In this document: in pieces, positions 1 to 23,462 of the stretch
How positions within the stretch are numbered: the first letter of the stretch is position 1
Layout of the letters: every line of letters begins with the position of its first letter
DNA from: a virus
Strand: one strand, 5' to 3'
Length of the DNA: 64,000 bases
IMG/VR virus record: IMGVR_UViG_3300029955_000024
Translations under genes and position numbers: made by a program
The notes under the pieces: model-generated
The model's input: only the letters and a program-made list of their open reading frames with translations
What the model was told of the DNA's origin: nothing
The model's database searches: none

Positions 1-236
1 TCCCTTTGAATACACTTTCTCATACTTATTAGGGCAAGGACACTGAATGAACCACACCATACTATCCAAAATATGTTCATATCATTCTTTCCACCACTCA
101 GGTTTAACCTTCGCTAAGATTAGCGCAAGTGTACTTGGATACACAACAGCATGGTCTGATAGGATATCGTGGTTAAAGGTTAAATAAGCTACTTCTTTAA
201 AGAAGATTCTTAATAATCTTAACTCTTCTTCTTCTG

Positions 237-503
237 TCATAACCCTACCTTATTGTGATATTTATTCTTATGGACATTTTCTTTCTGGTTACCTATATGA
301 TAATGCCCACAATCACAACCATAGACCAAGCACTTACAATCTGGGTCTTTCCTTAGCATCCCTCTCAGATGTGCTTTTGCTTGACCTATGGTATCGTGAC
401 AATGCTTGTGTAATTGACAACTACAGGAGGTATTCATAAACCCTCTTGATATGATTATTTCAAAGAACTTTGTGAGGCAGGGAATTTCCAACCATGCCCA
501 CAC
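237..503 (-). CDS. Cys/His-rich small protein, possible HNH/zinc-binding fold
   Basis: 88-aa ORF with clustered CxC...H...CxC..CxCGHYH motifs; overlaps 455..685 by 49 nt. Confidence 0.3.
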   Translation of the reverse strand: MWAWLEIPCLTKFFEIIISRGFMNTSCSCQLHKHCHDTIGQAKAHLRGMLRKDPDCKCLVYGCDCGHYHIGNQKENVHKNKYHNKVGL

Positions 504-685
504 TCAACCCACCAAGCTGGTGAAGTAAGGTATTTGTCTCCATCTTTTGATACTGAATATTTGGAGAGAATGGTTACTTCTTCTCCTATAGATGGATACT
601 TTACCTTATCGCCCACTTTCATTGTGCGAGTATTTACTTTGTTTTTCATTGAATCTCCAATCGGTAGAGCTTCCCGATTCTCCAA
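455..685 (-). CDS. hypothetical protein (76 aa)
   Basis: ORF track only; no recognisable motif. Confidence 0.3.
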   Translation of the reverse strand: MENREALPIGDSMKNKVNTRTMKVGDKVKYPSIGEEVTILSKYSVSKDGDKYLTSPAWWVECGHGWKFPASQSSLK

Positions 686-922
686 CTCTACATGGTTTTC
701 TGTCCTTTCGGACTGGGCCGTAACCCTCGAAGCTGAAAAACCTCGTGTTCAGGATGGAGTATCATCCTACGATTAGATTAGTGAGGTCGCATCAGAGCCC
801 TAATCTAATCTTCACTTAGCGTCTAATTTATTGATCGTATCTTTTCCGCCACGATTGGAGCATCTAAGGTGGAAATGTGAAAGCACATTTTATGGTTGAT
901 GAGACCAACCACCTAAGACATT

Positions 923-1153
923 TTACTTCTTCTTCTTCTTTTCTTCCAATGCAACTTCCCTGATACGCAACTCATTGGGTTTGGTCCCAACATCAGTGAT
1001 GTGGTCGCCAAGGTGCTTACGCAAGCCACTTCCCCTGCGCTTGGAATGAACCTGACCAGACGGATCAATCTTGCCACGATATTTCTTGTGGATCCCGTCA
1101 ACTTTTGCTTCGTTTCTTTCCTGCTTCGGGTTGAACAACGTCAAGTCGGACAT
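923..1153 (-). CDS. hypothetical basic protein with poly-Lys C-terminus
   Basis: 76-aa ORF, K/R-rich, ends EEKKKKK. Confidence 0.4.
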   Translation of the reverse strand: MSDLTLFNPKQERNEAKVDGIHKKYRGKIDPSGQVHSKRRGSGLRKHLGDHITDVGTKPNELRIREVALEEKKKKK

Positions 1154-1358
1154 AATTTCCCTTCTGTTGTTTAAAGTTTGTTGTAAAGGTTGTTTAAGGT
1201 TGTTATTTCTTCTTGAGCTGTGTGAGGCATCCCAATAAGATCTCTTAGTTCTCTTTCTTGTTTACATATTGGACAAGGTTGCCCCATAACGTAGCCATTT
1301 ATACATAGGCTACAATTGTGGTAGGATTCGAACTCAGAGCCCATAGACACCTCGTATT

Positions 1359-1435
1359 TGGTAGCTCCTCCTAGGGTCGAACTAGGCTATGCGGCTTATG
1401 AGACCGCCACTTTACCTACCATAAGTTAAAGAGCC
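1359..1435 (-). tRNA. tRNA with anticodon CAT (Met or Ile2/lysidine type), 77 nt, CCA encoded
   Basis: Hand-folded on the reverse complement. Acceptor GGCTCTT/AGGAGCT with two GU pairs; D-stem ACTT/AAGT; anticodon stem GCGGT/GCCGC with loop CTCATAA; T-arm CCTAG-TTCGACC-CTAGG; discriminator A + CCA. Confidence 0.7.
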
Positions 1436-1671
1436 ACGCTTTCACTTATTTCTGCTACTGGGGTAGTCGTAATAAGTCTAATATCAGTTCCTTCTGTAAG
1501 AGGAGGCCCCAAGATTTCTACTGGTTCGCCTATCTTAACATTCGAATGTGAGGTCATAACCCCGTCAGTAGTTCGTATGTTATATTTAGTATCGCCACCT
1601 CTTATCCAAGTTCCGACCTCTTCATTTAATGTGTATTCCGCTCCAGATTCAGTCTTGAATTTGATAATCAT
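1426..1671 (-). CDS. hypothetical protein (81 aa)
   Basis: ORF abutting Dps gene; 3' end overlaps tRNA by 10 nt. Confidence 0.4.
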   Translation of the reverse strand: MIIKFKTESGAEYTLNEEVGTWIRGGDTKYNIRTTDGVMTSHSNVKIGEPVEILGPPLTEGTDIRLITTTPVAEISESVAL

Positions 1672-1679
1672 AGTTTCCT

Positions 1680-2168
1680 TTAAGCGCGTAAACTTGCTTC
1701 CAAGAAATAGAGGAACTTTTCTAATCCTCTTACTAACCCAATATATACGTCTTGGGTTATTAGATCCCCATTCTCACTGGAGACTTTCATACCTTTCCTC
1801 ATTGCATTGGAAATGTCACTGATATAATCTGACATCTTTTCTATGTGGGTTCTACAATTGTCATCATAGATACCAGCGTAAGTAAAACCTTGACTATTGT
1901 TTGTAACCATCCAAGGTTTACCTTCTGGTACACCACCTAGAGCTGTTATTCGCTCGGCGATAGTATCGCTAGCATCTGCCATATAATCATAGATTTGATC
2001 AAATAGTAGATGTGTAGGATGAAATCCATCCCCTTTCACATTCCAGTGTGCAAATTTTATATCCATTTGTGCCAGCATGGTATTAGCAAGATTCACGTTT
2101 AGATTGTCGACGATTACCTTGATCTTATCTTCTGGCACGTCAATGCGCGTCGTATACAATTCACTCAT
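1680..2168 (-). CDS. dps: Dps-family DNA-protection/ferritin-like protein
   Basis: 162 aa. 'FAHWNVKGDGFHPTHLLFDQ...DTIAERITALGGVPEG' and 'DKFLYFLEASL' align to E. coli Dps ('AHWNMRGANFIAVHEMLD...DTMAERAVQLGGVALG', 'DKFLWFIESNIE'). Ferroxidase-centre His/His/Asp/Glu positions conserved. Confidence 0.85.
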   Translation of the reverse strand: MSELYTTRIDVPEDKIKVIVDNLNVNLANTMLAQMDIKFAHWNVKGDGFHPTHLLFDQIYDYMADASDTIAERITALGGVPEGKPWMVTNNSQGFTYAGIYDDNCRTHIEKMSDYISDISNAMRKGMKVSSENGDLITQDVYIGLVRGLEKFLYFLEASLRA

Positions 2169-2180
2169 CTTACTTTACCT

Positions 2181-2594
2181 TTATTCCTTAAGTGGATATA
2201 TTTGATGTGCTTCTGTAGTTCCTTTTATCAACATTCTTCCTAGATGCTCAGAACAACTCTCTGTAATCTTACGCCCCGTTGAATCAAGAACTTCGTATTC
2301 AGCTAACTGGTTACAAGGCAGTTGATCTGAATCAGTCCAGCGGCATAAGACCTGAGAGGAATTAGGGTAGCATCCACTTCCGTCATTCTGTTTACAGAGT
2401 AGTTCGTATAACCCTCTACAATTACGTAGTATCCCTGTATGAAAGTCTTCTCTTCCACAAGAGCTACATACTAGCTTTGTACGATAAGACGGGACAATAA
2501 CCTGCTCGATTACCTGTCCTTCTGGCTCTGTTTCTTTTATCTTCTGTTCTACTTCCTGAGGAAGTACTTCTTCGTTCTCCATCTTTCTCCACAT
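2181..2594 (-). CDS. Cys-rich hypothetical protein (137 aa)
   Basis: ORF with about 10 Cys, possible zinc-binding; no family recognised. Confidence 0.45.
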   Translation of the reverse strand: MWRKMENEEVLPQEVEQKIKETEPEGQVIEQVIVPSYRTKLVCSSCGREDFHTGILRNCRGLYELLCKQNDGSGCYPNSSQVLCRWTDSDQLPCNQLAEYEVLDSTGRKITESCSEHLGRMLIKGTTEAHQIYPLKE

Positions 2595-2619
2595 CTATTG
2601 ATATTGTTGGAATGTAAAT

Positions 2620-2694
2620 TGGTCGGCTCGGCTGGTGTCGAACCAGCGACCTAACCATTATGAGCGGTTGGCTCTACCGTTGAGCTACGAGCCG
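2620..2694 (-). tRNA. tRNA with anticodon CAT (Met or Ile2), 75 nt, CCA encoded
   Basis: Reverse complement folds canonically. Acceptor CGGCTCG/CGAGCCG; D-stem GCTC/GAGC; anticodon stem AACCG/TGGTT with loop CTCATAA; variable AGGTC; T-arm GCTGG-TTCGACA-CCAGC; discriminator A + CCA. Confidence 0.8.
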
Positions 2695-2745
2695 TTTCCT
2701 ATTTACATTATCACTTTAAATCACTAAGCTTCACGAGATCAGTAT

Positions 2746-3006
2746 TTACTTGAAATAAATAGCTCTATTTTCAGGTTGAATTTCTTCTTCTGGAATATCT
2801 AAACAATATCCTAATTCTTCTAGAGAATTACTTATGTCCAGCAGACGCTTTTTGTTATTTCCTACTCTTCCTCCTCCTCCAATTCTTCGGAGAATACCAG
2901 CTAAAACTTCAGCTTCTGCTGATGTTAAAAAAAGAGTAACACCTACTACTCTTTTTTCATATGTAGTTACTGGAACTTGTTCAATCATTCTTTCTGCTTT
3001 TGCCAC
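2746..3006 (-). CDS. hypothetical protein (86 aa)
   Basis: ORF track; Gly-run GGGGRVG; no family recognised. Confidence 0.4.
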   Translation of the reverse strand: MAKAERMIEQVPVTTYEKRVVGVTLFLTSAEAEVLAGILRRIGGGGRVGNNKKRLLDISNSLEELGYCLDIPEEEIQPENRAIYFK

Positions 3007-3018
3007 TTCTTATCTCCT

Positions 3019-3687
3019 CTAAATACCAACCATTTTCTGGACTTCTTCAGGAAGCATAGCAAGCCGCTCCTTGTTGATGGCTTCGTAGTCATACCCATCT
3101 TTGGTATCTGCCCAATGCAGAAGCCAGATAAAAGGCTGTTCCAACCAAGGATTGAGCAAAGTTCCGTGATTCCGTAGCTCTCGGATGTGGAATCGTAATG
3201 CTTCTCGCCCATCGAAATCACCCGAGAAATTGAGCTTATCAATTGGGTAACTTGAGCACTTAAGATCACATCGAGCTTTGCTCATAGCATCCACATCTTC
3301 ACAGTACAGATTGAACAACAATGTTGAGCTATTGATGCCCACGCCATAAGTGTCAAACCGAAGGAGCATGCCATCTGGGTGGTAGTACACAAAAAACTTA
3401 TCACCATCGTGAATAGAGCCACACTGTTCTGTTGATGGGATAGCTAGTTCCATCACCTTCTTGAACCCCTCCTCTTCAACAATCCGCTGGTAACGGTCCA
3501 GCTTATTGGAGAAAGTAGTATCATCAAGAGCTGTGAGCTCTTTTTCTAGCAAAGTGCTCTTTTTGCAGTACAAGAGGGAACCTATTGCTCTAGCCTTCCC
3601 ATCTGTCTTGTAGTCACCGCCGGTAATCTTCTCAGCAGCGCCAAGGGCATCGAATTCAAGTAATGCCTTCAAATCTTTGTCTTCCAT
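3019..3687 (-). CDS. hypothetical protein (222 aa)
   Basis: Long clean ORF packed against neighbours. Confidence 0.5.
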   Translation of the reverse strand: MEDKDLKALLEFDALGAAEKITGGDYKTDGKARAIGSLLYCKKSTLLEKELTALDDTTFSNKLDRYQRIVEEEGFKKVMELAIPSTEQCGSIHDGDKFFVYYHPDGMLLRFDTYGVGINSSTLLFNLYCEDVDAMSKARCDLKCSSYPIDKLNFSGDFDGREALRFHIRELRNHGTLLNPWLEQPFIWLLHWADTKDGYDYEAINKERLAMLPEEVQKMVGI

Positions 3688-3977
3688 GATAAGCCTCTTC
3701 CTCTAGCGCATAATCAGAATGATTATGATCCAAAACATCAGAGAAATTCCTGATGCTATGATTAAACCAGCAATTGAATTGCTAATCCTTGGATAACTCA
3801 TTTCAGTTTATTCCTAAACTCTTTTTCAAGCTCCAGAAGGTACGAAGCAGCATGTTCTCCAGTAAAGCCTTGATCCAGTAAGAAGTCCATAGCTGCAAGA
3901 TAGCTCAACCATTCAACTCCAAACCAGTATTGAAACCCTGTAGGAGTAGACATTGCTTTGTCCATAAACAAGACCTC

Positions 3978-4223
3978 CTAGTACCTGATTTTGATTGTGA
4001 TCACTTCCCCGGGAAGGAGCAAGCGAGCTCTGAGAGGGCAACTTCCTTCCCACACCTCAGATGGATCTGTAATAGACACTATGTCTCCACCATAGACTTT
4101 GGTGACAATATGCTTTCCACCACGGTAATTTTCAAGTAGGATCGCATACTGCCCTACTAGGAGAGAAGATGCATAAAAGTCTTCCTTCTTTGGTGCAGGC
4201 GTGAGTGTGATTTCATGATACAT
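3978..4223 (-). CDS. hypothetical protein (81 aa)
   Basis: ORF track; upstream region also holds two sub-60-aa ORFs (about 3700..3801 and 3797..3967). Confidence 0.35.
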   Translation of the reverse strand: MYHEITLTPAPKKEDFYASSLLVGQYAILLENYRGGKHIVTKVYGGDIVSITDPSEVWEGSCPLRARLLLPGEVITIKIRY

Positions 4224-4363
4224 GATATCTCTCCTATGATAAGGATACTTTCTTTTCGAATGTTTGACGTATTTTCAACCGATCTTCTTCTTTCTAGTAT
4301 AGTTATCCTATACTAAATAGTGATAGGAAGTAAGAAATAACTTCCCCTAGGAGAATTCAAACT

Positions 4364-5095
4364 ATGGCTATTGCCGCAAAAACTTTCGCTGGTAAGGTGA
4401 ATCTGGACAGTACTGCAAGTACGCTGAACGTCCCGTTCGTTACTGCCTCTGGTGACGCCGTTGTAGTTTACGTCGCCGTTAAATCGGCGAATGTCACAGT
4501 TCTAAGTGTTACAGATACCGCTGGAAACGTTTACGTTAAGAAAACATCAGGAACCTCTGAAAACGCTGTTCATGATTATAATAGCAATATAGCTGGTGAC
4601 ACCGTTGATGACTTAGTATCTTATGATGATGCTATAGACGCAGAAGCATGGGTAACAGTCGCTAGTGCTACAGCAGCTTCCTCGCTAACTGTAACCCTAG
4701 TAAGTGGTTCTACATGTGCTGTAGCAGTTCAGTCGTACACTGGCGCTAATGTCGCTGTCGCTACTGCTTTCCCACAAGCCGCTTTCGTTTCCTTAACAAA
4801 GGGGTCTACCCCTACAAATACTCTAACTGGAATGACTAGTACCAGTTACCTATCTGCTTGCTACGCATCTTGTGTTGGCTTGAACCAACTAACCCCCAGA
4901 GCAGGAACACTACGTCAAGAAGTAACTGCTTCTAGTGCAGACAAGTCTATCACACTTGTTGTGGTTGATAATATAGTTACTGGTACTTCTAGTACTGTTA
5001 CACTAGCTCCAGCTTCGGAAATAGATTCACCTGATGGAATTTCAGAACCAGTTCCAGAGGGAGTTGCTGTTTGCTGTGTTGAAGTTCACGTCTAA
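4364..5095 (+). CDS. Ala/Thr/Val/Ser-rich protein of unknown function (243 aa), the only plus-strand gene in the 48-kb minus block
   Basis: AGGAGA RBS 9 nt before the ATG. TATAGT/TATACT -10-like hexamers upstream. Followed directly by a strong intrinsic terminator. Almost no charged residues. Confidence 0.6.
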   Translation: MAIAAKTFAGKVNLDSTASTLNVPFVTASGDAVVVYVAVKSANVTVLSVTDTAGNVYVKKTSGTSENAVHDYNSNIAGDTVDDLVSYDDAIDAEAWVTVASATAASSLTVTLVSGSTCAVAVQSYTGANVAVATAFPQAAFVSLTKGSTPTNTLTGMTSTSYLSACYASCVGLNQLTPRAGTLRQEVTASSADKSITLVVVDNIVTGTSSTVTLAPASEIDSPDGISEPVPEGVAVCCVEVHV

Positions 5096-5113
5096 TTTTC
5101 TTCGTAATTAAGA

Positions 5114-5150
5114 CAAAACATCCTCAGACTTAATCTGAGGATGTTTTTTG
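5114..5150. terminator. bidirectional rho-independent terminator between convergent genes
   Basis: AACATCCTCAGA-cttaa-TCTGAGGATGTT 12-bp stem followed by TTTTTT on plus; A-run on the other side. Confidence 0.7.
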
Positions 5151-5162
5151 TGATAAAGATTA

Positions 5163-5417
5163 TTAGAATCGTGTTGGTATACCGTTTTGTACAGTTGTAC
5201 TCTCTTCATCTTCTAGCTCAATCCTTTGACCAGAGTCTAGGTTGATAATAGCTACTAGAATATTAATTTCACGATCGTCTTTACTAACTTCTCTCTCTAG
5301 GATAACTTGGACGGTATACCCCTGAGTAGTCCTATCTCTTATGGAAGTAATGTTAGTCCATCTACCGAGTACTGTATTTCCTAGACTGGTGTCTTTTAAA
5401 ACAAAAGTGTTATTCAT
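5163..5417 (-). CDS. hypothetical protein (84 aa)
   Basis: ORF track. Confidence 0.4.
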   Translation of the reverse strand: MNNTFVLKDTSLGNTVLGRWTNITSIRDRTTQGYTVQVILEREVSKDDREINILVAIINLDSGQRIELEDEESTTVQNGIPTRF

Positions 5418-5421
5418 CTAT

Positions 5422-5949
5422 TTACTCTTCTCTTGGAAGTGGAGAGTAAGCAAGTTCTTGCAACTCGTTCATATCTACCGCTTCGTTCTGTTCGGCGAAG
5501 TTTCCTTCGTCTATGATTTCAATATCCCCTTGTTTATCTTTCAATGTTTTACGCATTGAAGAACTTACATCTAACCACATCTTAACATATGTTTCTTCTC
5601 TAGATATCGCTGGTGGGTTCTCTCCAGCACACCAACGAGAACAAGCTTCCATAGCTACATTACGTTGTATAGAGATGTCTAGTTCTAATCCTCTTAGTTG
5701 TTTGAATGTCTCAAAAGAAACCGTTTCTAGACCCTCTGGAATAATTTTGATGGTCCACTCTTTGGCACGTTCATCTTCTATATACTCTTTACATATATCT
5801 TCTGCTGCTTCTTGAGCGTCTTTGCTAGTGCCGAATGTTAACCTAGAATCTAAATTCTGAGTTCTACGACCATCTGGATGTGAAGCGTCTACTATGAATC
5901 TCCAACGCCTCATCTTCCTTTTTGAGGCTTTACTCTTTGGTGTTGGCAT
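5422..5949 (-). CDS. hypothetical protein (175 aa)
   Basis: ORF with AGGAG RBS (caaatttaggagtatATG on the reverse complement). Confidence 0.5.
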   Translation of the reverse strand: MPTPKSKASKRKMRRWRFIVDASHPDGRRTQNLDSRLTFGTSKDAQEAAEDICKEYIEDERAKEWTIKIIPEGLETVSFETFKQLRGLELDISIQRNVAMEACSRWCAGENPPAISREETYVKMWLDVSSSMRKTLKDKQGDIEIIDEGNFAEQNEAVDMNELQELAYSPLPREE

Positions 5950-6222
5950 ATACTCCTAAATTTGGCTGGGATTGAAGGCTCCCAGCAAGCCCTTACTATT
6001 AGAATTAACTAGGATCAAATAGGTAATTGGCCTAATAGTAATAACTACACACATATTCCACGCTCTTGTTGGCGGCCCCGGAAATCTGGACGATGTTCCC
6101 TACAGCGTTGCGGTCCCCAAACCGCTGCCAAATCCCGGTGAAACCAGTGTGTAGCAAAAGGTTAATTAACATCTACCGCTGTTTCTCCTCTCCCTCGATT
6201 AGCGGTGTCATCGAGGGGCAGG

Positions 6223-6458: not shown

Positions 6459-7115
6459 TTACATATTCTTCAGCAAATCTTCTGCGGCTGCCGTTGTCTC
6501 AGGATCTTCAGATGTAGTGACAGCTCCCATGGCACGGTTCAACTTCTCTGTGGCTATATCATTCTGTGCTCGCATGCGCCCTTCAACATCATCGACAGAG
6601 ATATCTGCCCCACTGCCTACTAATCTACCCGCGTGCTCAAGAGCAGTTGCTGCATGAGTTTGAGCCTTCGAGGACTGATTTAGTGCCTCAAGTTCACGAA
6701 CTTTGCTCAACATCTCTGCATGCTTACTGGTAATATTGGCGACTGAAATGTCCATCTTGTTCGATGTTTCCGTCTCTGAAATCAACAAAGCCTGCTTGTT
6801 GGTTACTTCATTCTGTAACCGAACAATTTCCTTTGCTTTTTCCAAAGCCTGATCAGGATGCCCGTTGTTTTTCAGCTTCGTTGCTGTAATTCTGGAGGTC
6901 TCGATTTTTGCATTGAGATCGTCGATCTCACGCTTTGTCGTGTGAACTGTAGCTGCTGCTACCGCTGCTTCTCCACGTAGCTGGTCAAGAGCCTCTTCCA
7001 GATCCCTTACATACTGCCGAAGAGCAGATGGACTGTTAAGATCGATCACTTTGTCAAGTAGATCATGGGTCTCACCAAGTCCAATCGTTCTGAGCTTGCT
7101 AAAAATTCCTGTCAT
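6459..7115 (-). CDS. pspA: PspA/IM30/Vipp1-family protein (phage shock protein A homolog)
   Basis: From internal Met: 'MTGIFSKLRTIGLGETHDLLDKVIDLNSPSALRQYVRDLEEAL...' parallels E. coli PspA '[40 protein letters not shown]', then long coiled-coil. ATG at 7113-7115 sits 17 nt after the TPM gene stop. The upstream 75 codons of the ORF are the TPM gene's Gly/Ser tail read in another frame. Confidence 0.85.
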   Translation of the reverse strand: MTGIFSKLRTIGLGETHDLLDKVIDLNSPSALRQYVRDLEEALDQLRGEAAVAAATVHTTKREIDDLNAKIETSRITATKLKNNGHPDQALEKAKEIVRLQNEVTNKQALLISETETSNKMDISVANITSKHAEMLSKVRELEALNQSSKAQTHAATALEHAGRLVGSGADISVDDVEGRMRAQNDIATEKLNRAMGAVTTSEDPETTAAAEDLLKNM

Positions 7116-7131
7116 TGCCTTTCCCTTCTTC

Positions 7132-8472
7132 TTAGAAATCGCTACTACCACCGCCGCCGCTGTCGGAACTGCTGCTACTGTCAAAGCTGCTACTCCCGCC
7201 GCTGTCAAAGCTAGAACTGGAATCAGAACTACCCCAACTGGATGAGCCACCAGACTCGCTTTCACGATCTGGTTCTGGATCTGGAGCTCTGTACGTTGAT
7301 TCTTCTCGTCTTGGTTCTTCGCGACGAATCTCTTCCACACGTGGTCGATTGTTTATAGATTCGCCGATGAGAACACCAGTCAATAAATCATTGTTGGGAG
7401 TTGATGTCGGTGTTGGTTCATAAGTCGGTCTTTGTTCTATGTTATGGTGCTGGTGATGATGCCTAACTTGGTTGTATCCAGTGGTATCATTTACATCGGC
7501 AGTGTCAATGGGGGGTCCTTGTTCAGCCGGCTGTTCCGTTGCCATTGGGCTCTGTACATATTTGTGTGCTGAACGTAGAGACTCGAACTTATCGATGAGG
7601 ATTCGATATTCTTTGGTAATGGCTTGATAACCATCTTCTGTCATACTTTGTTTGGGGTCCATCGAGTCTGAGTTCTCCATATTGGAAAACTCTTCCATAT
7701 ACGTATCAAACATATCTTGAATGGATTTCTCTGGTGGATCACTCTGGAACGCTGATTTGAGGGTAAGAACTAGCGCAATACATTGATTCTTTGTAACTTG
7801 AGCTAACCTCTTCGCTTTTGCTTTGGCATCTCTTATTTCTGCCCAACGGGTGCAAGCGATATACCCTGCGGCAATAATGAAGATTAAGAACCCCAATCCA
7901 AGACACCATAGTAGTACAGTCCATAAACCTTTATAGTCCGTTGCTTGGACATTGGTTGTGTTCTGGACTGGGTGTAGAGCTTCATCTTTGGAAGCCGCTA
8001 ATCGAAGTGAGAATTGTTCGATACCAGTAGACATGCCAAGTGCATAGTTACCGTCTTTGAATCTTGGGATCATATAGGACGTCATGATCCGGTTCCAATT
8101 TCCGTCTAGTGCGGAATGCCAAGCGGAACCATACATTATTCCTACTTTATGATTCCCGGCTAACATAAAAACAATGAGTGTACTTTTACGTCCACCGCTG
8201 CCACTTTCCCAAGAGGCACATTGGTTCTCCATCTGTTTTTCTGTGATATCGAGGTTGGTGCTATACCCGACTGTCCTTATTCGGACATCAGCGCCTTGTT
8301 GAACCAACCTGTTCGCAGCGGTTTCTACTGTTGTAATACCTTTTCCAAACAGATTTGCTTGGTCAATGACAATGTTGTCACACAATAGAGATTGAGCCAT
8401 GACCCAACCTGACGTTGAAAACACCATCATCATAACCAACAACGTATACATTGTCAGCTTTGAACTTTTCAT
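7132..8472 (-). CDS. TPM-domain (TLP18.3/Psb32/MOLO-1, YgcG-like) membrane protein
   Basis: Signal peptide (MKSSKLTMYTLLVMMMVFSTSGWVMA). TPM motifs 'VIDQANLF', 'LIVFMLAGNHKVGIMYGSAWHS', 'IPRFKDGNYALGMSTGIEQ'. One TM helix, then Gly/Ser-rich C-tail typical of YgcG. GGAGGTGGAG RBS before ATG at 8472. Confidence 0.8.
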   Translation of the reverse strand: MKSSKLTMYTLLVMMMVFSTSGWVMAQSLLCDNIVIDQANLFGKGITTVETAANRLVQQGADVRIRTVGYSTNLDITEKQMENQCASWESGSGGRKSTLIVFMLAGNHKVGIMYGSAWHSALDGNWNRIMTSYMIPRFKDGNYALGMSTGIEQFSLRLAASKDEALHPVQNTTNVQATDYKGLWTVLLWCLGLGFLIFIIAAGYIACTRWAEIRDAKAKAKRLAQVTKNQCIALVLTLKSAFQSDPPEKSIQDMFDTYMEEFSNMENSDSMDPKQSMTEDGYQAITKEYRILIDKFESLRSAHKYVQSPMATEQPAEQGPPIDTADVNDTTGYNQVRHHHQHHNIEQRPTYEPTPTSTPNNDLLTGVLIGESINNRPRVEEIRREEPRREESTYRAPDPEPDRESESGGSSSWGSSDSSSSFDSGGSSSFDSSSSSDSGGGGSSDF

Positions 8473-8524
8473 ACACTCCACCTCCAAGTGGATCGGGAGG
8501 GTTGTTACACCCTCCCTTTACTAG

Positions 8525-10636: not shown

Positions 10637-12148
10637 TTACACGTCTTTTAGGACGGTGAATGAATCCTTTCGTTTCCTTCTATGACAATTTGTACACATT
10701 ATGAACTCTTTTGTATCATTTTTACAATTGTATTCTTCCCTGATAGTGGTTTTTACCATTCCATGAGGATAATTTATCTCATTACTGTTTTTATCCTTCA
10801 TCCTAACCCCAGTAGTGAACATCATAGTTCCTTTACATTTGGGGCACTTTGCTGCTATACGGATAACCTTGGATTGGTCGGAGAAGAATCCAGTTTTCAG
10901 AAGTCTATTGACATGTTTATACCAAACTTCACAGATTGCTTTCTTAATTGAATCTTTACCATAACTAGGGTTCTCTAGTTGATAGTCAAAAGCACGCTCC
11001 AACATTCTTTTATATTCATTACTGGGGGTGAATCCCCACTCGGTGAGATCGTCGCCAGTAACCAATGGTTTGGGGAATCCAAGAGTCTTAGCAGCAGTTA
11101 TATACCCTATGGTATTCTCCATATTTATAGAGATGATCTTAGCATTAACTAGAATCCATAGTAATTCTATAGCTCTGTTTATATTTGGCTTGTTGGCAAG
11201 CTTCCTTCTTTCACATAGTGAAGTAAGCCTATTAGACCTAAGATCAATTACTATTTGCACCATCTCTGAGATTGTATTTCTGTCTTCGTTAGAGAATTTG
11301 AGATATTTTAATACATCCCCAATATTCCAATATATACCAGTTGTATACAAAAGACAACACCATGCTAAGATTGGATCTTTAACTTGTCCAATCTTGTCGA
11401 AATTGACAGTTTGATCTACTATATTAAAAAGGGAATTTGGTTGTTGCTCATAGATTTTGGTGTATAAATTAGTTCTCTGAAGACAGAACAAAGCGTCACC
11501 GACGTGTTCCCCCGTTATGAGCTTTGTCATTTCGTCTCTAACACGTTCTCGCGAAACCCTAATCATCAAATTTGCATTATTACGAATTGCTCGTAATGTC
11601 TCAAATTCTATCTGAAACCCAAGTTGTGACACGAATCTAACAGCTCTTAACATTCGAAGAGGATCCTCTTGGAAACGAATGTTAGGGTCACCAATACAAC
11701 CAATCCTTCGTATTGATATATCATATTTACCACCAACATAATCAATAACTTCCATTGACTCTGGGTTCATCAATATCCCATTCATCCTAAAATCTCTACG
11801 ACCAGCGTCAATACATTCTTGATCAGTAAATATAACACTATCCGGTCTACGAAGGTCTGAATACTCAGTAGAATCACTTCTCAATGTAGCTACTTCTATG
11901 GAGTGATCTACACCATCTATATCAACAAGGACTTTTACAACTCCGAATTCTACTCCAATTGGAATATTGTGGGGAAATAGATCCATTACTTCATTGGGTT
12001 TAGCTGAAGTACATATATCAAAGTCTTTCGGTTCCTTGTTCATAAGAAGGTTTCTAACACACCTACCTACAAGGAAGACTTTGAAGTTATTTTGCTTTAA
12101 CGTCTTAGCTACTTTCCTAGCAGCTTCTAAACTACTTATCTCTGGCAT
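10637..12148 (-). CDS. cca: CCA-adding tRNA nucleotidyltransferase / poly(A) polymerase family, with C-terminal Zn-ribbon extension
   Basis: Head-domain motifs 'GRCVRNLLMNKEPKDFDI' (GGxVRDxLL..DxD), 'RRDFRMNGILMNP' (RRDFTIN), 'EDPLRMLRAVRF'. C-terminal CPKCKG...CTNCH. ATG at 12148 with AAGGA RBS; the track's 12163 start is TTG. Confidence 0.85.
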   Translation of the reverse strand: MPEISSLEAARKVAKTLKQNNFKVFLVGRCVRNLLMNKEPKDFDICTSAKPNEVMDLFPHNIPIGVEFGVVKVLVDIDGVDHSIEVATLRSDSTEYSDLRRPDSVIFTDQECIDAGRRDFRMNGILMNPESMEVIDYVGGKYDISIRRIGCIGDPNIRFQEDPLRMLRAVRFVSQLGFQIEFETLRAIRNNANLMIRVSRERVRDEMTKLITGEHVGDALFCLQRTNLYTKIYEQQPNSLFNIVDQTVNFDKIGQVKDPILAWCCLLYTTGIYWNIGDVLKYLKFSNEDRNTISEMVQIVIDLRSNRLTSLCERRKLANKPNINRAIELLWILVNAKIISINMENTIGYITAAKTLGFPKPLVTGDDLTEWGFTPSNEYKRMLERAFDYQLENPSYGKDSIKKAICEVWYKHVNRLLKTGFFSDQSKVIRIAAKCPKCKGTMMFTTGVRMKDKNSNEINYPHGMVKTTIREEYNCKNDTKEFIMCTNCHRRKRKDSFTVLKDV

Positions 12149-12273
12149 ATATTCCTTGTTCAATCTTATCCCAAGTACTCAGGACTAAAAGGGGGTAGTG
12201 TAAGTTATAAAGTAGTAAAGTACACTACCCTTCGTATTTGTCTACTTCTGACCACCAAACCATCATGGCTTGT

Positions 12274-13191
12274 CTACTTGTTTGGAATTCCAATCAGAAA
12301 GTTTCCACCCTTGTCACCACCGGATAGATACTCTGGCATACGACCATCCCAACGCCAAATAGCAGCATTCTGGTTATCCAGTGCTCTCATATTTAAGATG
12401 TTTGGTGTGATTGAAGCGTTCCTGATTCTATTGGCTTCCGCTTCACCAGTAGCCTTGGTAATCTGTGCCTTAGCTTCACCCTCAGACTGAGCAACTAGTT
12501 TAGCTGCATCAGCTTGCACCTGAATAAGCTCAATCTGCTTCTTCTGTGCAACTTGATTTGCCTGTGCCTTATTGTTGATAGCATCGATTACTGATTGAGG
12601 TGGCCTTGGTGCTCCGATGAACCCGAACTGAGTAAGCTCAGCTCCATACTCTAATACTTGGCTTTGAACGCATTTCTTGGTTTCTTCAATGAAAACTGCG
12701 TTATCACCCATAACTTGTTCGATGCCATACTTGCCGGCATGTTCATTGAAGCAGTCTCTTGCTATGTTTCTAAGGAACCCGTGAGTGAATTTCGTATCAA
12801 TTTCTTTTTCGTCGTGTGCCAAGAACTTTACATAGAAGTATGGAACTTTCTCTGCATGTAGGAAATAACTCAATGAGATATCAGCACCAATTACCATTGA
12901 ATCTTTGTTGGTAAAGGTGATACTCTCGTCGATTGGCTTGCCCTCGTTGGGGCTTGCAGTCCATTTCGCTGTCTGCATGGAGGTTGGGTATTCATACACA
13001 CTCTCGGTAATTGGGTTATAAAACACCCAGCCAGTACGAACAGGGGTATCCGTTACCCCTTTGCTTGAACCTGCCATGTTTACAACAATTCCGACATGTC
13101 CCGGTCCAACTGACGTCCAGCCACAACCGGTTAGGAGACAAGCGGATAAGATAGTAACAATCAAGCTAAGATTCGCTGTGTTTAGTTTCAT
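12274..13191 (-). CDS. SPFH/band-7 (stomatin/prohibitin-like, YqiK/QmcA-type) lipoprotein
   Basis: Signal + lipobox LLTGC. 'VGPGHVGIVVNMAGSSKGV', coiled-coil 'AQANQVAQKKQIELIQVQADAAKLVAQSEGEAKAQ' and 'AEANRIRNASITPNILNMRALDNQNAAIWRWDGRMPEYLSGG' match the SPFH C-terminal region. AAGGAG RBS before ATG 13191. Confidence 0.8.
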   Translation of the reverse strand: MKLNTANLSLIVTILSACLLTGCGWTSVGPGHVGIVVNMAGSSKGVTDTPVRTGWVFYNPITESVYEYPTSMQTAKWTASPNEGKPIDESITFTNKDSMVIGADISLSYFLHAEKVPYFYVKFLAHDEKEIDTKFTHGFLRNIARDCFNEHAGKYGIEQVMGDNAVFIEETKKCVQSQVLEYGAELTQFGFIGAPRPPQSVIDAINNKAQANQVAQKKQIELIQVQADAAKLVAQSEGEAKAQITKATGEAEANRIRNASITPNILNMRALDNQNAAIWRWDGRMPEYLSGGDKGGNFLIGIPNK

Positions 13192-13441
13192 TTTCGTTCT
13201 CCTTGTGATACTGAAGTTGTAGGTAATGATATGTTTCTCCAAACAATTTATAACTCCAAGAACTTGCGTACTTCCAACTGATGAACAAACTAATCAATAC
13301 AACAAACAGCCCAAAGAAAGCCAATAGAGTACTGGGAGCGGATAAGGCAACAAACCCCCAATTCATGACATATAACCCAGCGCATGTTACAACTACAATC
13401 TTGAGAGATTGTATAAGGAAGTGCCACCAGAATCTATTCAT
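13166..13441 (-). CDS. small 2-TM membrane protein, possible NfeD/YqiJ-like partner of the SPFH protein
   Basis: 91 aa, two hydrophobic helices, sits immediately upstream of the SPFH gene and overlaps it by 26 nt. Confidence 0.35.
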   Translation of the reverse strand: MNRFWWHFLIQSLKIVVVTCAGLYVMNWGFVALSAPSTLLAFFGLFVVLISLFISWKYASSWSYKLFGETYHYLQLQYHKENENETKHSES

Positions 13442-13525: not shown

Positions 13526-14053
13526 TTAAAAGTCTTCGTCAACACAACGCACGGGAATGACTCTTACTCCTTCTCTTCTCCACATATCAACAACCCGTTT
13601 ACGATCCTCAATGGCGAACAGAATTTGATCTTTTCCTCTTGGTAATGAGTTAACTAACTCATTCAGAATTTCCTTTTTTACTACGTCGCCTGGTCTCTTA
13701 TCCCCTTCCCAACAGAAGAATATCCAAGAGAAAGGAATGTCATATTTTCTTAACCACTCTACGGACAGATCCCCTGTTGTGAAAGAAGGGCGGCCAGATA
13801 TGATGACGATACTACAATCTTGAGAGATTGTCCGTACCCAAGAAGCTATAATGTCCACTGGAAGGTCATTACACGCTTCTATGTGAAATTGTTTGAAGTT
13901 TTTAGGATGAGATTTAACGTAGTGTAGTCTATGACTACAGTCTGACAGTGTTCCGTCTAGATCAACAATCACTACTGGTTTTTCTCCCCATTCTATCTTG
14001 TTCTCCAGTAATAACACTCTGGACTTTTCAACACTGTTACGACATGGTTTCAT
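13526..14053 (-). CDS. HAD-family polynucleotide 3'-phosphatase, T4 Pnkp phosphatase-domain-like (no kinase domain)
   Basis: 'VVIVDLDGTL' DxDGT motif. C-terminal 'DVVKKEIL...FAIEDRKRVVDMWRREGVRVIPV' matches remembered T4 Pnkp 'DVVKEEIF...[22 protein letters not shown]'. No P-loop. Confidence 0.6.
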   Translation of the reverse strand: MKPCRNSVEKSRVLLLENKIEWGEKPVVIVDLDGTLSDCSHRLHYVKSHPKNFKQFHIEACNDLPVDIIASWVRTISQDCSIVIISGRPSFTTGDLSVEWLRKYDIPFSWIFFCWEGDKRPGDVVKKEILNELVNSLPRGKDQILFAIEDRKRVVDMWRREGVRVIPVRCVDEDF

Positions 14054-17322: not shown

Positions 17323-18576
17323 TCATTTTAAGATACCTTTGAAGGACTCAACTGACATTCTGTCCTCGAACCTTGGTCCAAACGAGATTGTGTTGATAGT
17401 CGGTTCCAACAAATTCTTTAGAACAGACAAGTAAGTGCTTAGACTCGGGGGTTGTATAAACAAACCCTTCTCTGAGTCGATTATCTTCAGATAGTCTGTC
17501 CACCTGTCCAAATGGGACAAAGCTATTTCATCTACGCCTTTACAAATCTTAATGGACTTATTGACAAGCCCAATGTCCAAGTGTCCCACCCGAAACTCCC
17601 CTTGATACTCGCCTTTCTGGTTATGATTTTCTGGCAGTAAACCAGTTAATCTCATATCCTCGGTTGGGAATGGACCCACTCCGTGACGAGTGGCGTAGGT
17701 TCTTATACAGCCAATTCTGACTCTGTTACCAATGAACCCAGAAATGTTGAGCAAATCATCAGCATTCCTGAAAGTTGTGTTGGTCCATGAGTTATACGGA
17801 TAGGTCCCATACCACTCATCTAACATTACTCCTTGTGCCCCCTCGAACACAGATGCAGTGGATTTTGATAGCAAATCAGAAAGGAACTCTTGTGGCTTTA
17901 CCTGAGCGTTCCATTTGCTATATATCCGACTGTGCCATTCAGACCAGTCTTCATTACTATCTACTATGATGTCGTAGTCCTTTTTCCACTGGTCCACTGG
18001 TATCTTTTCCAATGTCGGAAGCAGCTCTTTCAGCTTGGCGAGGTACACCTTGTGAAGGAAGCTCAATTTGCTACGTGTTACCTCTTCTGATTCTATGTCT
18101 TTAGCAAATAGGACGTTGTTCCCATATTCAATGGAATCACTACGAGTTTGTCCTATTCCTTGTCCACAGCTACCGTGTCTGTTCTTCCCTCTGGCAATTT
18201 CTCTCAACCTTCCAAAAGCTATTTGGAAGGGAGTGACTACCAAGCAATCCCCATCAACAAATGTTCTGTCCCATATATCAGTTATCCCAAGGGACATTAG
18301 ATGAGCTGCTTCTCTCATCATGTAGAATGGATTGACCAATGTAAACTTGGACAAGTAAGTCTTCACATTGGGTTGTAGCATCCCACTACCAAACTGTTGG
18401 AAGGTATGGCTTCTCGATAATTCAACAACGTTATGTGCAGCTTGTGGCCCACCGTTGTATCGAACTATCAAATCAGCTTTGTGAGTACGGGTTAGATACT
18501 CTACGTGGGCTCCTTTTGCGCAATCGCCCCATAGCATCCCAGCAACGAGATATGCTATACCCATTAGTACCTCCAT
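17323..18576 (-). CDS. adenylosuccinate synthetase family protein (divergent PurA/PurZ-like)
   Basis: 'WGDCAKGAHV' (P-loop GDEGKGK), 'GGPQAAHN', 'GSCGQGIGQTR', 'FEGAQGVMLDEWYGTYPY', 'TRHGVGPFPTE' parallel PurA motifs. The TGRRRR region is diverged. Confidence 0.75.
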   Translation of the reverse strand: MEVLMGIAYLVAGMLWGDCAKGAHVEYLTRTHKADLIVRYNGGPQAAHNVVELSRSHTFQQFGSGMLQPNVKTYLSKFTLVNPFYMMREAAHLMSLGITDIWDRTFVDGDCLVVTPFQIAFGRLREIARGKNRHGSCGQGIGQTRSDSIEYGNNVLFAKDIESEEVTRSKLSFLHKVYLAKLKELLPTLEKIPVDQWKKDYDIIVDSNEDWSEWHSRIYSKWNAQVKPQEFLSDLLSKSTASVFEGAQGVMLDEWYGTYPYNSWTNTTFRNADDLLNISGFIGNRVRIGCIRTYATRHGVGPFPTEDMRLTGLLPENHNQKGEYQGEFRVGHLDIGLVNKSIKICKGVDEIALSHLDRWTDYLKIIDSEKGLFIQPPSLSTYLSVLKNLLEPTINTISFGPRFEDRMSVESFKGILK

Positions 18577-21815: not shown

Positions 21816-23462
21816 TTAGCTCGCCCTGTGCCACCCCTTGGCAGATTTCAGGGCAAAAAGAATGTTCTTAGCTTCTGCTGAGTCTCCTCCAGCCAAACTT
21901 TCAGTGTACATTAACATTGCAGCTTCAGTGTTTCCCTTGTCTGGGTGAAAATCAAGGAATACACCAGCCCTTGGGACTTGTCTATCAGTTAGATTCTGGG
22001 CTTTTATCTTTGCCACCGCTCCAATTAGTTGGTCTCTGTGGTCCCAGATCCACTGTCTCTTCTCATCAGTAATACTGAAGCTACCAATTTCTCCCCTAGC
22101 CCCGTTAGCAGGGTTCTCAACAACCATCCTGCCAACGGAACCTGAGTACTTACCTGATCCTTCAAGGATCTCCACAACAGGTAGATCAAAAGGATCCGTG
22201 TTCTTTACTTTGAACCAATTACCCTCGCCGACTTTACTATCAACAGACTTGGCGACAATTCCTTCACCATATGGCATTGGTTGAGCAATAACCATATCGT
22301 AGAACTCTTCTGGTGACTGGTATCGCCCTTTCTCAGCACTCACGTACCAGTGCTTGTTGAAAATCCTAACTTCGGCAATGGTATCCTTAAGTAGCGCACG
22401 CCGCTCTCCGTATGGCAACTTTGATACGTCCCTACCACGGTACTTGAGAATATCCCAAGCAACAAAGGTGGCCTCACCACGGAGCGCCTGAATTTGGCGA
22501 GCCTTTTCCGGATAAGCATTTAGGATCCCTCCTATTCTCCCAGGGCCATCGGGATGGACTAATTCACCTCTTACAAGGGATCCACGTAAATTTGGACCTC
22601 TGAACAACTTTCTGGAAGACCACAAATTTGATGTGTTACTTATATGCTCCAACTGTGGAAGCCTGTCGTAATATGTCTCCCCTTCTTCTCTATGGCTTCT
22701 AAAGGTAGCATAGTTGTCCATGATGAGTACGTTAGAAAGTGAACCATCATACTTCTGTTCAAATACGTACTCATCTGGGTTGACGGTTTTTAGCCAGTTT
22801 CTCAGCTTCGTTCTGTAAGCTGGTTTTGGTATTACCATGCCTTCGTCTTTCATCGGGACTATAAGCTTTCCCTTCGGAGTGGTCACAAAGGCATAGCGCC
22901 CCTTGAATTCGCCAGATGGTATGTTAAGTTCCCACTGCTCTGTTCCAGGAGGTACCCCCTCAACGACAAGGTCGTAATGCAAGCCAGCTCTGATTGCATT
23001 ATGAGAGTGGTAATTAATTTTGGCGGGAAAGGTCCTTTCACCAATCTTAACAATACCGACCTTAGAAAGAAGCAGTGTTTTAATTCCTTTACCGTAACCT
23101 TCCTCGATTTCCCCAGAGAAGTCTGTGATAAAGTGCGGATCATTCTCGATCGCAAGCGCACGCTTGCCACTGATCGGTAAACCCTTCGGAATCGCGTACT
23201 TGGCAAACGCCGGATTAGGCGTGAATTCATTAAGGGTAGCTCCATCTACTGACCTCGTAGGATACCATCTAGAAGTGTACAATCTAGAACGGGGATACTT
23301 AGGTAACAACATAGCATGAAGATTGTTTTGAACTCTTGGCTGTATAACAGAACCAAAAGTATCAAGTCCGATGTCTAATCCAGTCCTGAGTAGGGCTTTC
23401 GATATCGTTTTTACCCATCTCCAAACTTTGCTTTTCATGTTGTCACTCCCGGTATTTTCCAC
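21816..23462 (-). CDS. ATP-dependent polynucleotide ligase (DNA/RNA ligase nucleotidyltransferase superfamily)
   Basis: Motif I 'KYDGSL', motif IV 'EGIVAK', motif V 'WFKVK', motif III-like 'FVAWDIL'. No Arg after motif I Gly (present in many DNA ligases). Confidence 0.75.
   Translation of the reverse strand: MENTGSDNMKSKVWRWVKTISKALLRTGLDIGLDTFGSVIQPRVQNNLHAMLLPKYPRSRLYTSRWYPTRSVDGATLNEFTPNPAFAKYAIPKGLPISGKRALAIENDPHFITDFSGEIEEGYGKGIKTLLLSKVGIVKIGERTFPAKINYHSHNAIRAGLHYDLVVEGVPPGTEQWELNIPSGEFKGRYAFVTTPKGKLIVPMKDEGMVIPKPAYRTKLRNWLKTVNPDEYVFEQKYDGSLSNVLIMDNYATFRSHREEGETYYDRLPQLEHISNTSNLWSSRKLFRGPNLRGSLVRGELVHPDGPGRIGGILNAYPEKARQIQALRGEATFVAWDILKYRGRDVSKLPYGERRALLKDTIAEVRIFNKHWYVSAEKGRYQSPEEFYDMVIAQPMPYGEGIVAKSVDSKVGEGNWFKVKNTDPFDLPVVEILEGSGKYSGSVGRMVVENPANGARGEIGSFSITDEKRQWIWDHRDQLIGAVAKIKAQNLTDRQVPRAGVFLDFHPDKGNTEAAMLMYTESLAGGDSAEAKNILFALKSAKGWHRAS

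Follow-up and report, generated by a model that had tools for sequence, protein, structure and literature searches.

The stretch of DNA analysed here, 64,000 nucleotides (nt) of one strand from the IMG/VR virus record IMGVR_UViG_3300029955_000024 and hereafter called the window, carries a gene for a protein of the Dps family, the ferritin-like DNA-protection proteins. This dps gene is the middle one of three open reading frames (ORFs) of 137, 162 and 81 amino acids (aa), which all lie on the same strand between two tRNA genes with CAU anticodons (Table 1). An earlier note, made from the sequence alone, had described the gene as placed between two tRNAs, which is correct although loosely worded, as there are three ORFs in between. 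The genes of a terminase large subunit and a portal protein confirm the window as phage DNA. We conclude that the 162-aa product is a bona fide Dps-family mini-ferritin, and we consider it likely that it is a functional one, which an uncultured jumbo phage would produce in infected cells and which would confer chemical protection without condensing DNA.

The assignment to the Dps family is supported by profile searches and by structure prediction. The protein matches the Pfam family Ferritin (PF00210) over residues 21-160 with an E-value of 1.4e-18, scoring 67.6 bits where the gathering cutoff is 24.5. It also matches PHROG 3636 ('DNA binding protein') across its full length (1.2e-27), and the NCBIfam Dps model NF006975 with 8.6e-32 and 110.5 bits, just under the equivalog/trusted cutoff of 114. 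A phmmer search of the PDB returned 71 distinct sequences, essentially all of the Dps family and including a few engineered Dps fusions, of which the best were the Dps proteins of Brucella melitensis (3ge4, 2.8e-20) and Agrobacterium tumefaciens (1o9r, 3.4e-20), followed by those of Salmonella (1.1e-17) and Escherichia coli (about 1e-16). An AlphaFold2 model built from an alignment of 119 sequences has a mean predicted local distance difference test score (pLDDT) of 96.9 and a predicted template modelling score (pTM) of 0.91, and consists of helices A (residues 13-43), B (49-76), a short BC helix (85-91), C (105-132) and D (136-161), the chain ending at residue 162. This is the Dps topology, i.e. 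a four-helix bundle whose long crossover loop includes a BC helix and which lacks the E helix of maxi-ferritins. The 50 PDB matches listed by Foldseek all belong to the Dps family, with template modelling (TM) scores of 0.93 for 1o9r, 0.92 for 3ge4 and ~0.87 for E. coli Dps at root mean square deviations (rmsd) of 1.4-1.8 Å, so that a different four-helix-bundle family as the true identity of the protein is not borne out. The Pfam search and the structure prediction that had been proposed as checks in the earlier note were thus both positive, and its reading of the gene as a phage-borne Dps is upheld by the matches to PF00210, PHROG 3636 and the PDB Dps proteins together with the phage families found in the window.

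The residues of the inter-subunit ferroxidase centre and those flanking it are all present in the phage protein, and their codons were verified in the DNA. K38, H41, W42, H53, D57, D68, E72 and R73 correspond to K48, H51, W52, H63, D67, D78, E82 and R83 of E. coli Dps, respectively. This register was obtained from a HMMER alignment to Salmonella Dps, which equals E. coli Dps in length and is nearly identical to it in the catalytic region; no gap occurs in it between query residue 3 and a point past residue 80, and the numbering is shifted by 10. A MAFFT alignment including an E. coli Dps sequence that is consistent with the PDB alignments gave the same register. As the two registers agree, a misalignment of the ferroxidase residues is not borne out, and the motif-by-motif match to E. 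coli Dps with intact ferroxidase residues, as originally described, stands. Across 131 aligned Dps sequences, that of E. coli among them, H41, W42, H53, D57, D68, E72 and R73 show 100% conservation, and K38 is a Lys in 130 of the 131 and an Arg in the other. In the model, one end of the bundle holds H41 and H53, and D68 and E72 are located towards the opposite end of helix B, so a metal site would be possible only across the two-fold dimer, an arrangement that is the hallmark of Dps proteins as opposed to maxi-ferritins. The residue after the second His is L54 in the phage protein and E64 in E. coli; we rejected L54 as a mark of an altered site, because this column is variable in bacterial Dps proteins too (L in 52, E in 44 and K in 12 of 113).

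Residues beyond the catalytic centre are conserved as well. D135, at the acidic start of helix D, is invariant in one of our alignments (A1) and at least 90% conserved in another (A2), and for D140 conservation is 90% or higher in either alignment; by analogy with published Dps structures, these two residues would mark the acidic three-fold pore ('ferritin-like') through which iron enters. R73, R124 and E150 align with R83, R133 and D156 of E. coli Dps, which are hot spots of assembly; R73 is invariant, and the columns of R124 and E150 are at least 90% conserved, with D as the usual residue in the latter, which indirectly supports the predicted dodecamer. That the catalytic residues are kept at 44-67% overall identity argues for selection on activity. 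Synonymous variation was uninformative about purifying selection, since the six contigs with the identical protein do not differ by a single nucleotide in the gene or in its flanks.

E. coli Dps binds and condenses DNA through a flexible Lys-rich N-terminus, and the Dps of Mycobacterium smegmatis does so through a basic C-terminal tail. The phage protein has neither. It begins at the equivalent of residue 11 of E. coli Dps and thus has no counterpart of residues 1-10 with K5, K8 and K10, which serve in DNA binding and condensation, and it ends immediately after helix D. Its first 25 residues contain three K/R versus five D/E, with R8 as the sole basic residue among the first 12. At pH 7 its net charge is about -8 and that of E. 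coli Dps -4, and the respective isoelectric points (pI) are 4.86 and 5.72. The 18 members of the subclade to which the protein belongs (see below) have N-terminal segments of 4-9 residues (15 in two of them), C-terminal extensions of 0-1 residues and pI values of 4.4-5.0, and the pattern of an acidic protein with a tail-less N-terminus holds in 16 of the 18. Given the absence of basic tails and the acidic pI, DNA condensation or nucleoid compaction of the E. coli type is unlikely.

The relatives of the protein place it in a phage-borne lineage. In a collection of 5.8 billion proteins, its next relatives, 67% and 65% identical, are found on short contigs and are followed by a series at 41-51% identity. 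The six proteins with 44-50% identity whose contexts were examined (P0006, P0007, P0009, P0010, P0014 and P0016) are all found in phage contexts. Five of these loci (P0009, P0010, P0014, P0007 and P0016) share most of their gene order, which consists of a T4-type RNA ligase, NADAR, RlaP (in four of the five), two small ORFs and Dps, followed in most of them by a lipase or glycosyltransferase and then DUF7873; a CCA-adding enzyme is encoded upstream of the RNA ligase in two of the five. In this related phage lineage (loci L007, L010, L011, L029 and L030), the ligase, of the T4 Rnl1 type, and NADAR are present at all five loci, and dps lies a few genes downstream of the largely shared set. P0006 and the IMG/VR locus L012, on a 143-kb uncultivated virus genome (UViG), represent a third background, which is marked by a giant PolA and a protein with a helical domain of the HMUDK type. 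The first relative examined that has a clearly bacterial context is P0025 (41% identity), in the company of UvrA, two-component systems, a P450 and MscS. Neighbour joining of 131 sequences groups the window protein with all of its phage-context relatives in one provisional clade of 18 tips; P0025, P0040 and P0098 (annotated as Pirellulaceae and Blastocatellia metagenome-assembled genome proteins) and six other IMG/VR copies fall outside it. All members of this subclade come from metagenomic contigs, the majority of which have a phage-type gene context and some of which exceed 100 kb, and every member whose context was examined lies in a phage. Since the phage-context relatives, at 44-50% identity versus 40-41% for the bacterial ones, are spread over at least three phage backgrounds, these results point to a Dps lineage that has long been resident in phages, other phages having acquired Dps independently.

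A mechanism can be proposed for how such a protein would act. H41, H53 and D57 of one chain would face D68 and E72 of its two-fold partner, and the dimers would assemble into a hollow dodecamer. Fe2+ would enter through the acidic three-fold pores in the D135/D140 region and be oxidised at the inter-subunit sites, with H2O2 as the preferred oxidant, and the resulting ferric core would be stored inside. Iron sequestration and H2O2 consumption would remove both Fenton reagents at once; fewer hydroxyl radicals would then be formed, the replicating phage DNA and the host machinery would suffer less damage, and the infected cell would stay productive until lysis. The protection would be chemical, by scavenging of iron and peroxide, and would not involve coating or condensing DNA, as in the A. 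tumefaciens Dps with its immobilised tail. Several points weigh against this proposal. The activity, oligomeric state and expression of the protein are all read from homology. Its NF006975 score lies below the cutoff, so that it qualifies as a Dps-family member and not as an NCBI-defined equivalog of the E. coli/enterobacterial Dps. The ~40 window ORFs scanned include no partner gene that is iron-dependent or related to oxidative stress, which leaves the physiological rationale without support from context, and the tree carries no bootstrap support, which makes the monophyly of the subclade provisional. Moreover, some Dps proteins bind DNA without tails, by surface charge or cation bridging, and the missing tails therefore do not strictly exclude DNA binding.

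One alternative is that the protein is a DNA-binding nucleoid protein which, as Dps does in stationary-phase E. coli, coats and compacts DNA, be it that of the host, to shut it off, or that of the phage, to protect it. It shares its fold with the DNA-binding E. coli protein, and PHROG 3636 as well as many of its GenBank phage homologs are labelled 'DNA binding protein'. However, this label goes back to the family name and has no experimental basis, acidic residues outnumber basic ones in the N-terminal segment, the Lys-rich N-terminal tail and a C-terminal tail of the M. smegmatis type are both missing from a protein of low pI and negative charge, and A. tumefaciens Dps, which is described as protecting DNA without binding, is among the two best structural matches. 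We therefore regard a DNA-binding role as unlikely, and the nucleoid compaction put forward in the earlier note finds no support in this protein with its A. tumefaciens-like structure; iron and peroxide detoxification without DNA binding would, by analogy, fit better than condensation of the E. coli type, and is favoured here. Iron could also be the object in itself, if the protein served as a store or chaperone which captures host iron early and feeds it to a phage ribonucleotide reductase, Fe-S enzymes or dioxygenases, or provides virion-linked iron. Dps cages hold up to several hundred Fe atoms, and as the genome reaches 215 kb, of which 64 kb were inspected, iron enzymes may lie beyond the window. 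On the other hand, none of the window ORFs scanned encodes an iron-dependent enzyme, and the neighbours in related phages, namely a CCA-adding enzyme, RNA ligase, NADAR, RlaP and lipase, reveal no linkage to iron enzymes, so we give this role a low probability. A more speculative variant would make the tail-less, acidic Dps a tool of phage takeover, a dedicated viral iron-management module that strips the host of its labile iron and thereby starves iron-dependent host defences and metabolism, or feeds phage enzymes. It is suggested by the long retention of the gene in large environmental phages and by the conserved tRNA/RNA-repair neighbourhood of one lineage, and it seems to us improbable at present.

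Still less can be said for a place in the virion or for a gene that serves no purpose. By analogy with the ferritin-like cargo of encapsulins and with Dps-fold prohead protease fusions, the protein could be a virion cargo or internal protein, given that Dps-fold domains occur in BFVD within proteins of 333-763 aa annotated as prohead protease. The phage protein, however, is a stand-alone Dps of 162 aa with no extra domain or targeting extension and is at most 18-20% identical to the fused proteins, and its gene lies ~47 kb from the start of the opposite-strand terminase/portal block (about 49-62.6 kb), among genes of nucleotide and RNA metabolism; this is the least probable of the explanations considered. 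The fused proteins are of interest on their own: several 'prohead protease' proteins of uncultured Caudovirales in BFVD (A0A6J7XDU5, A0A6J7WPK9 and A0A6J7WIS1) contain a Dps-fold domain with a TMq of 0.63-0.85 to the phage model, which recalls encapsulin cargo, and phages may here put the fold to a separate use that is targeted to the capsid. A host gene that was captured recently and has no adaptive role, a passenger or 'moron' heading for decay, would agree with the several independent acquisitions that are apparent among phages, with the other IMG/VR copies outside the clade, and with bacterial homologs that are only slightly more distant, at 40-41% identity. Such a passenger is nevertheless very unlikely in view of an intact ORF, a full set of catalytic residues and a confidently folded model, and of phage-context relatives at 44-50% identity in at least three genome backgrounds versus 40-41% for the nearest relatives with a bacterial context or annotation.

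The immediate surroundings of dps suggest that the gene is likely expressed, to judge from its Shine-Dalgarno-like site, the tight co-directional spacing and the lack of any terminator-like site between the tRNAs. The dps ATG is located 12 nt past the stop of the upstream Cys-rich ORF, which is called as 133 aa on other contigs, and the downstream ORF begins 8 nt after the dps stop. As no terminator-like site was detected on the minus strand between the flanking tRNAs, the three ORFs probably form one transcription unit in which the upstream ORF is co-transcribed with dps. A promoter scan gave no excess of sites over shuffled sequence, and no promoter is claimed. In tblastn comparisons with 26 related Dps loci, neither the ORFs flanking dps nor the next two upstream were found, Dps itself being the sole match, and a conserved multi-gene module around dps was accordingly rejected. 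Nor did the neighbouring ORFs have a functionally informative Pfam or PHROG match, the sole match being that of a 222-aa ORF to a PHROG family of unknown function. Since its neighbours in the window do not accompany it elsewhere, dps acts as a stand-alone gene, and its position between the tRNAs has no demonstrated functional meaning, as the neighbouring ORFs do not travel with Dps in related phages. The two tRNA genes differ in sequence, and neither has the hallmarks of a bacterial initiator: their first pairs are G1:U72 and C1:G72, with no C1:A72 mismatch, and in both the anticodon stem is without a run of three G:C pairs. They may be an elongator tRNA-Met in one case and a tRNA of the tRNA-Ile2 (lysidine) type in the other.

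Table 1. Coordinates of the dps locus, of the key codons and of other features of the window
Feature	Position	Strand	Evidence or remark
dps-like gene, 162 aa and stop	1680..2168	minus	ATG start, TAA stop; ORF listing, DNA read, retranslation
Shine-Dalgarno-like AAGG, 9 nt 5' of dps ATG, overlapping the stop codon of the upstream ORF	2178..2181	minus	printed upstream sequence
Upstream co-directional ORF, 137 aa (longest start), Cys-rich	2181..2594	minus	no Pfam or PHROG match
Downstream co-directional ORF, 81 aa	1426..1671	minus	no Pfam or PHROG match
tRNA, CAU anticodon, upstream edge of the three-ORF block	2620..2694	minus	ARAGORN; Rfam RF00005, 60.8 bits
tRNA, CAU anticodon, downstream edge of the three-ORF block	1359..1435	minus	ARAGORN; Rfam RF00005, 46.1 bits
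ORF, 222 aa	3019-3687		phrog_36907, function unknown
Codons of the inter-subunit ferroxidase centre and flanking residues	1953..2057	minus	read from DNA
K38 codon	2055-2057	minus	
H41 codon, CAC	2048-2046	minus	
W42 codon	2043-2045	minus	
H53 codon, CAT	2012-2010	minus	
D57 codon, GAT	2000-1998	minus	
D68 codon, GAT	1967-1965	minus	
E72 codon, GAG	1955-1953	minus	
D135-D140 codons, acidic start of helix D	1743..1766	minus	alignment with E. coli D141, D146
CCA-adding enzyme	10637-12163	minus	
PNKP phosphatase domain	13526-14053	minus	
PurA/PurZ-like adenylosuccinate synthetase	17323-18576	minus	phrog_1211 (phage PurZ) 1e-61; PF00709 4e-55
ATP-dependent DNA ligase	21816-23462	minus	
ORF, 177 aa	28673-29206	minus	positions 46-98 of the DprA/DNA_processg_A profile
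ORF, 197 aa	29468-30061	minus	positions 46-98 of the DprA/DNA_processg_A profile
ORF, 1261 aa	41554-45339	minus	no PHROG or Pfam match at E<=1e-5
Terminase large subunit	55851-57878	plus	
Portal protein	60292-62592	plus	

On the scale of the window, the genes from position 1 to ~47 kb, including dps, are almost all on the minus strand and form a non-structural arm, and plus-strand ORFs start from ~49 kb in a block that includes the terminase and the portal. The identical Dps protein is encoded on 19 metagenomic contigs, the longest of 215 kb. The nearest cultured relatives of the terminase, with 23-29% identity, are those of the jumbo phages Moorella MTATph1, Bacillus 0305phi8-36 and Acinetobacter ME3 (177-235 kb), and a megablast of window positions 1-6000 against 50,697 phage records gave no match, i.e. 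no close cultured relative. The phage is thus uncultured and deeply divergent, and probably a jumbo phage.

The arm that carries dps also contains genes of the tRNA/RNA-repair type, for a CCA-adding enzyme, a PNKP phosphatase and an ATP-dependent ligase, and the window has a glycosyltransferase gene. The adenylosuccinate synthetase homolog could indicate a genome with 2-aminoadenine (Z); it has the N-terminal P-loop WGDCAKG, in which the PurA-type Asp is kept, and the ORFs scanned on either side of it include no recognisable DatZ- or MazZ-like gene. Genes of the membrane-stress type are found on the minus strand at 6459-7340, 7132-8487 and 12274-13242, with matches to PspA/IM30 (5e-15), a TPM domain (1.6e-10) and SPFH/Band 7 (5.7e-24; PHROG 200, 'lipoprotein'); together with Dps, they suggest that the phage carries several host stress-management genes. 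The two neighbouring ORFs of 177 and 197 aa, which match the same part of the DprA profile, have the appearance of tandem paralogs, each with part of a DprA-like (Rossmann) domain. The largest ORF of the window encodes 1261 aa. Beyond window position 1, the same phage encodes a TROVE/Ro60 protein of 566 aa with a vWA domain (L001, 12155-12489), an Rsr-like RNA quality-control factor of the bacterial kind that is unusual in phages.

Using tblastn, we found Dps homologs in 212 of 50,697 GenBank phage records (~0.4%), including 92 Escherichia, 65 Streptomyces, 13 Lactobacillus and 10 Aeromonas records, and many of them are annotated as 'DNA binding protein' or even 'integrase'. The latter label is found on many homologs from E. 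coli phages of the Kuravirus type, e.g. in phage ES17 (MN508615.2, 44948-45418), and looks like a propagated mis-annotation. BFVD holds some 20 viral models with the Dps fold, including those of Semele, LP65, Bacillus phage G (gp346) and E. coli phage SU10. DPS-family genes have been reported in the gut 'Gratiaviridae' and 36 other phage genomes, with the proposal that they protect the anaerobic host from oxidative stress (Benler et al. 2021, PMC8008677), and Lactobacillus phage copies have also been discussed (Kyrkou et al. 2019, PMC6669764). Phage-borne Dps is therefore already documented, and the protective role proposed for it is already in print. The earlier note had called phage-encoded Dps uncommon, which is fair at ~0.4% of records but overstates its rarity in the light of a PHROG family of its own, the 212 records, the BFVD models and these two papers. 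In the searchable literature we found genomic mentions only and no experimental characterisation of any phage Dps; a match to jumbo phages and 'DPs' proved to be a false lead, DPs there denoting decoration proteins.

Stress genes carried by phages reveal weaknesses of the host that limit viral yield, and a Dps that is ferroxidase-competent by its residues in very large phages suggests that Fenton damage constrains long infections. As the fold, the chemistry and the idea of a phage-borne Dps are known, what the present case contributes is one more data point and a divergent subclade resident in phages, and no new principle; it is a clean, experimentally tractable case of a phage borrowing a host stress gene, which will not surprise the specialist. 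A biochemical and knockout study of a phage Dps would fill a gap.

Among known systems, the Dps proteins already recorded in phages include those of PHROG 3636, of the Kuravirus-type E. coli phages SU10, NJ01 and ES17, of ~130-kb Streptomyces phages, of the Lactobacillus plantarum myophages Semele and LP65, and of the gut 'Gratiaviridae'. Like the window protein, they are stand-alone Dps or ferritin-like proteins, proposed to guard against oxidative damage, and are at most about 32% identical to it among the matches listed (at most 24% for those of BFVD). E. coli Dps (1dps, 1f30) shares the fold of the phage protein, with a TM score of 0.87, ~30% identity and an ungapped catalytic region, whereas the phage protein is without its first 10 residues, is more acidic, and scores below the NCBIfam equivalog cutoff. 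The best matches are the Dps proteins of A. tumefaciens (1o9r) and B. melitensis (3ge4), with E-values of ~3e-20, 30-32% identity and TM scores of 0.92-0.93 at an rmsd of 1.4 Å over 161 residues. The phage protein differs from these two in an N-terminal segment that is even less basic, in an identity of only ~30%, and in being encoded by a phage and not on a bacterial chromosome under stress regulation. With A. tumefaciens Dps, whose PDB title reads 'a member of the family that protect DNA without binding', it shares the length of 162 aa, the ferroxidase residues and the absence of a free Lys-rich tail, and it is this non-DNA-binding A. tumefaciens type that the phage Dps most resembles.

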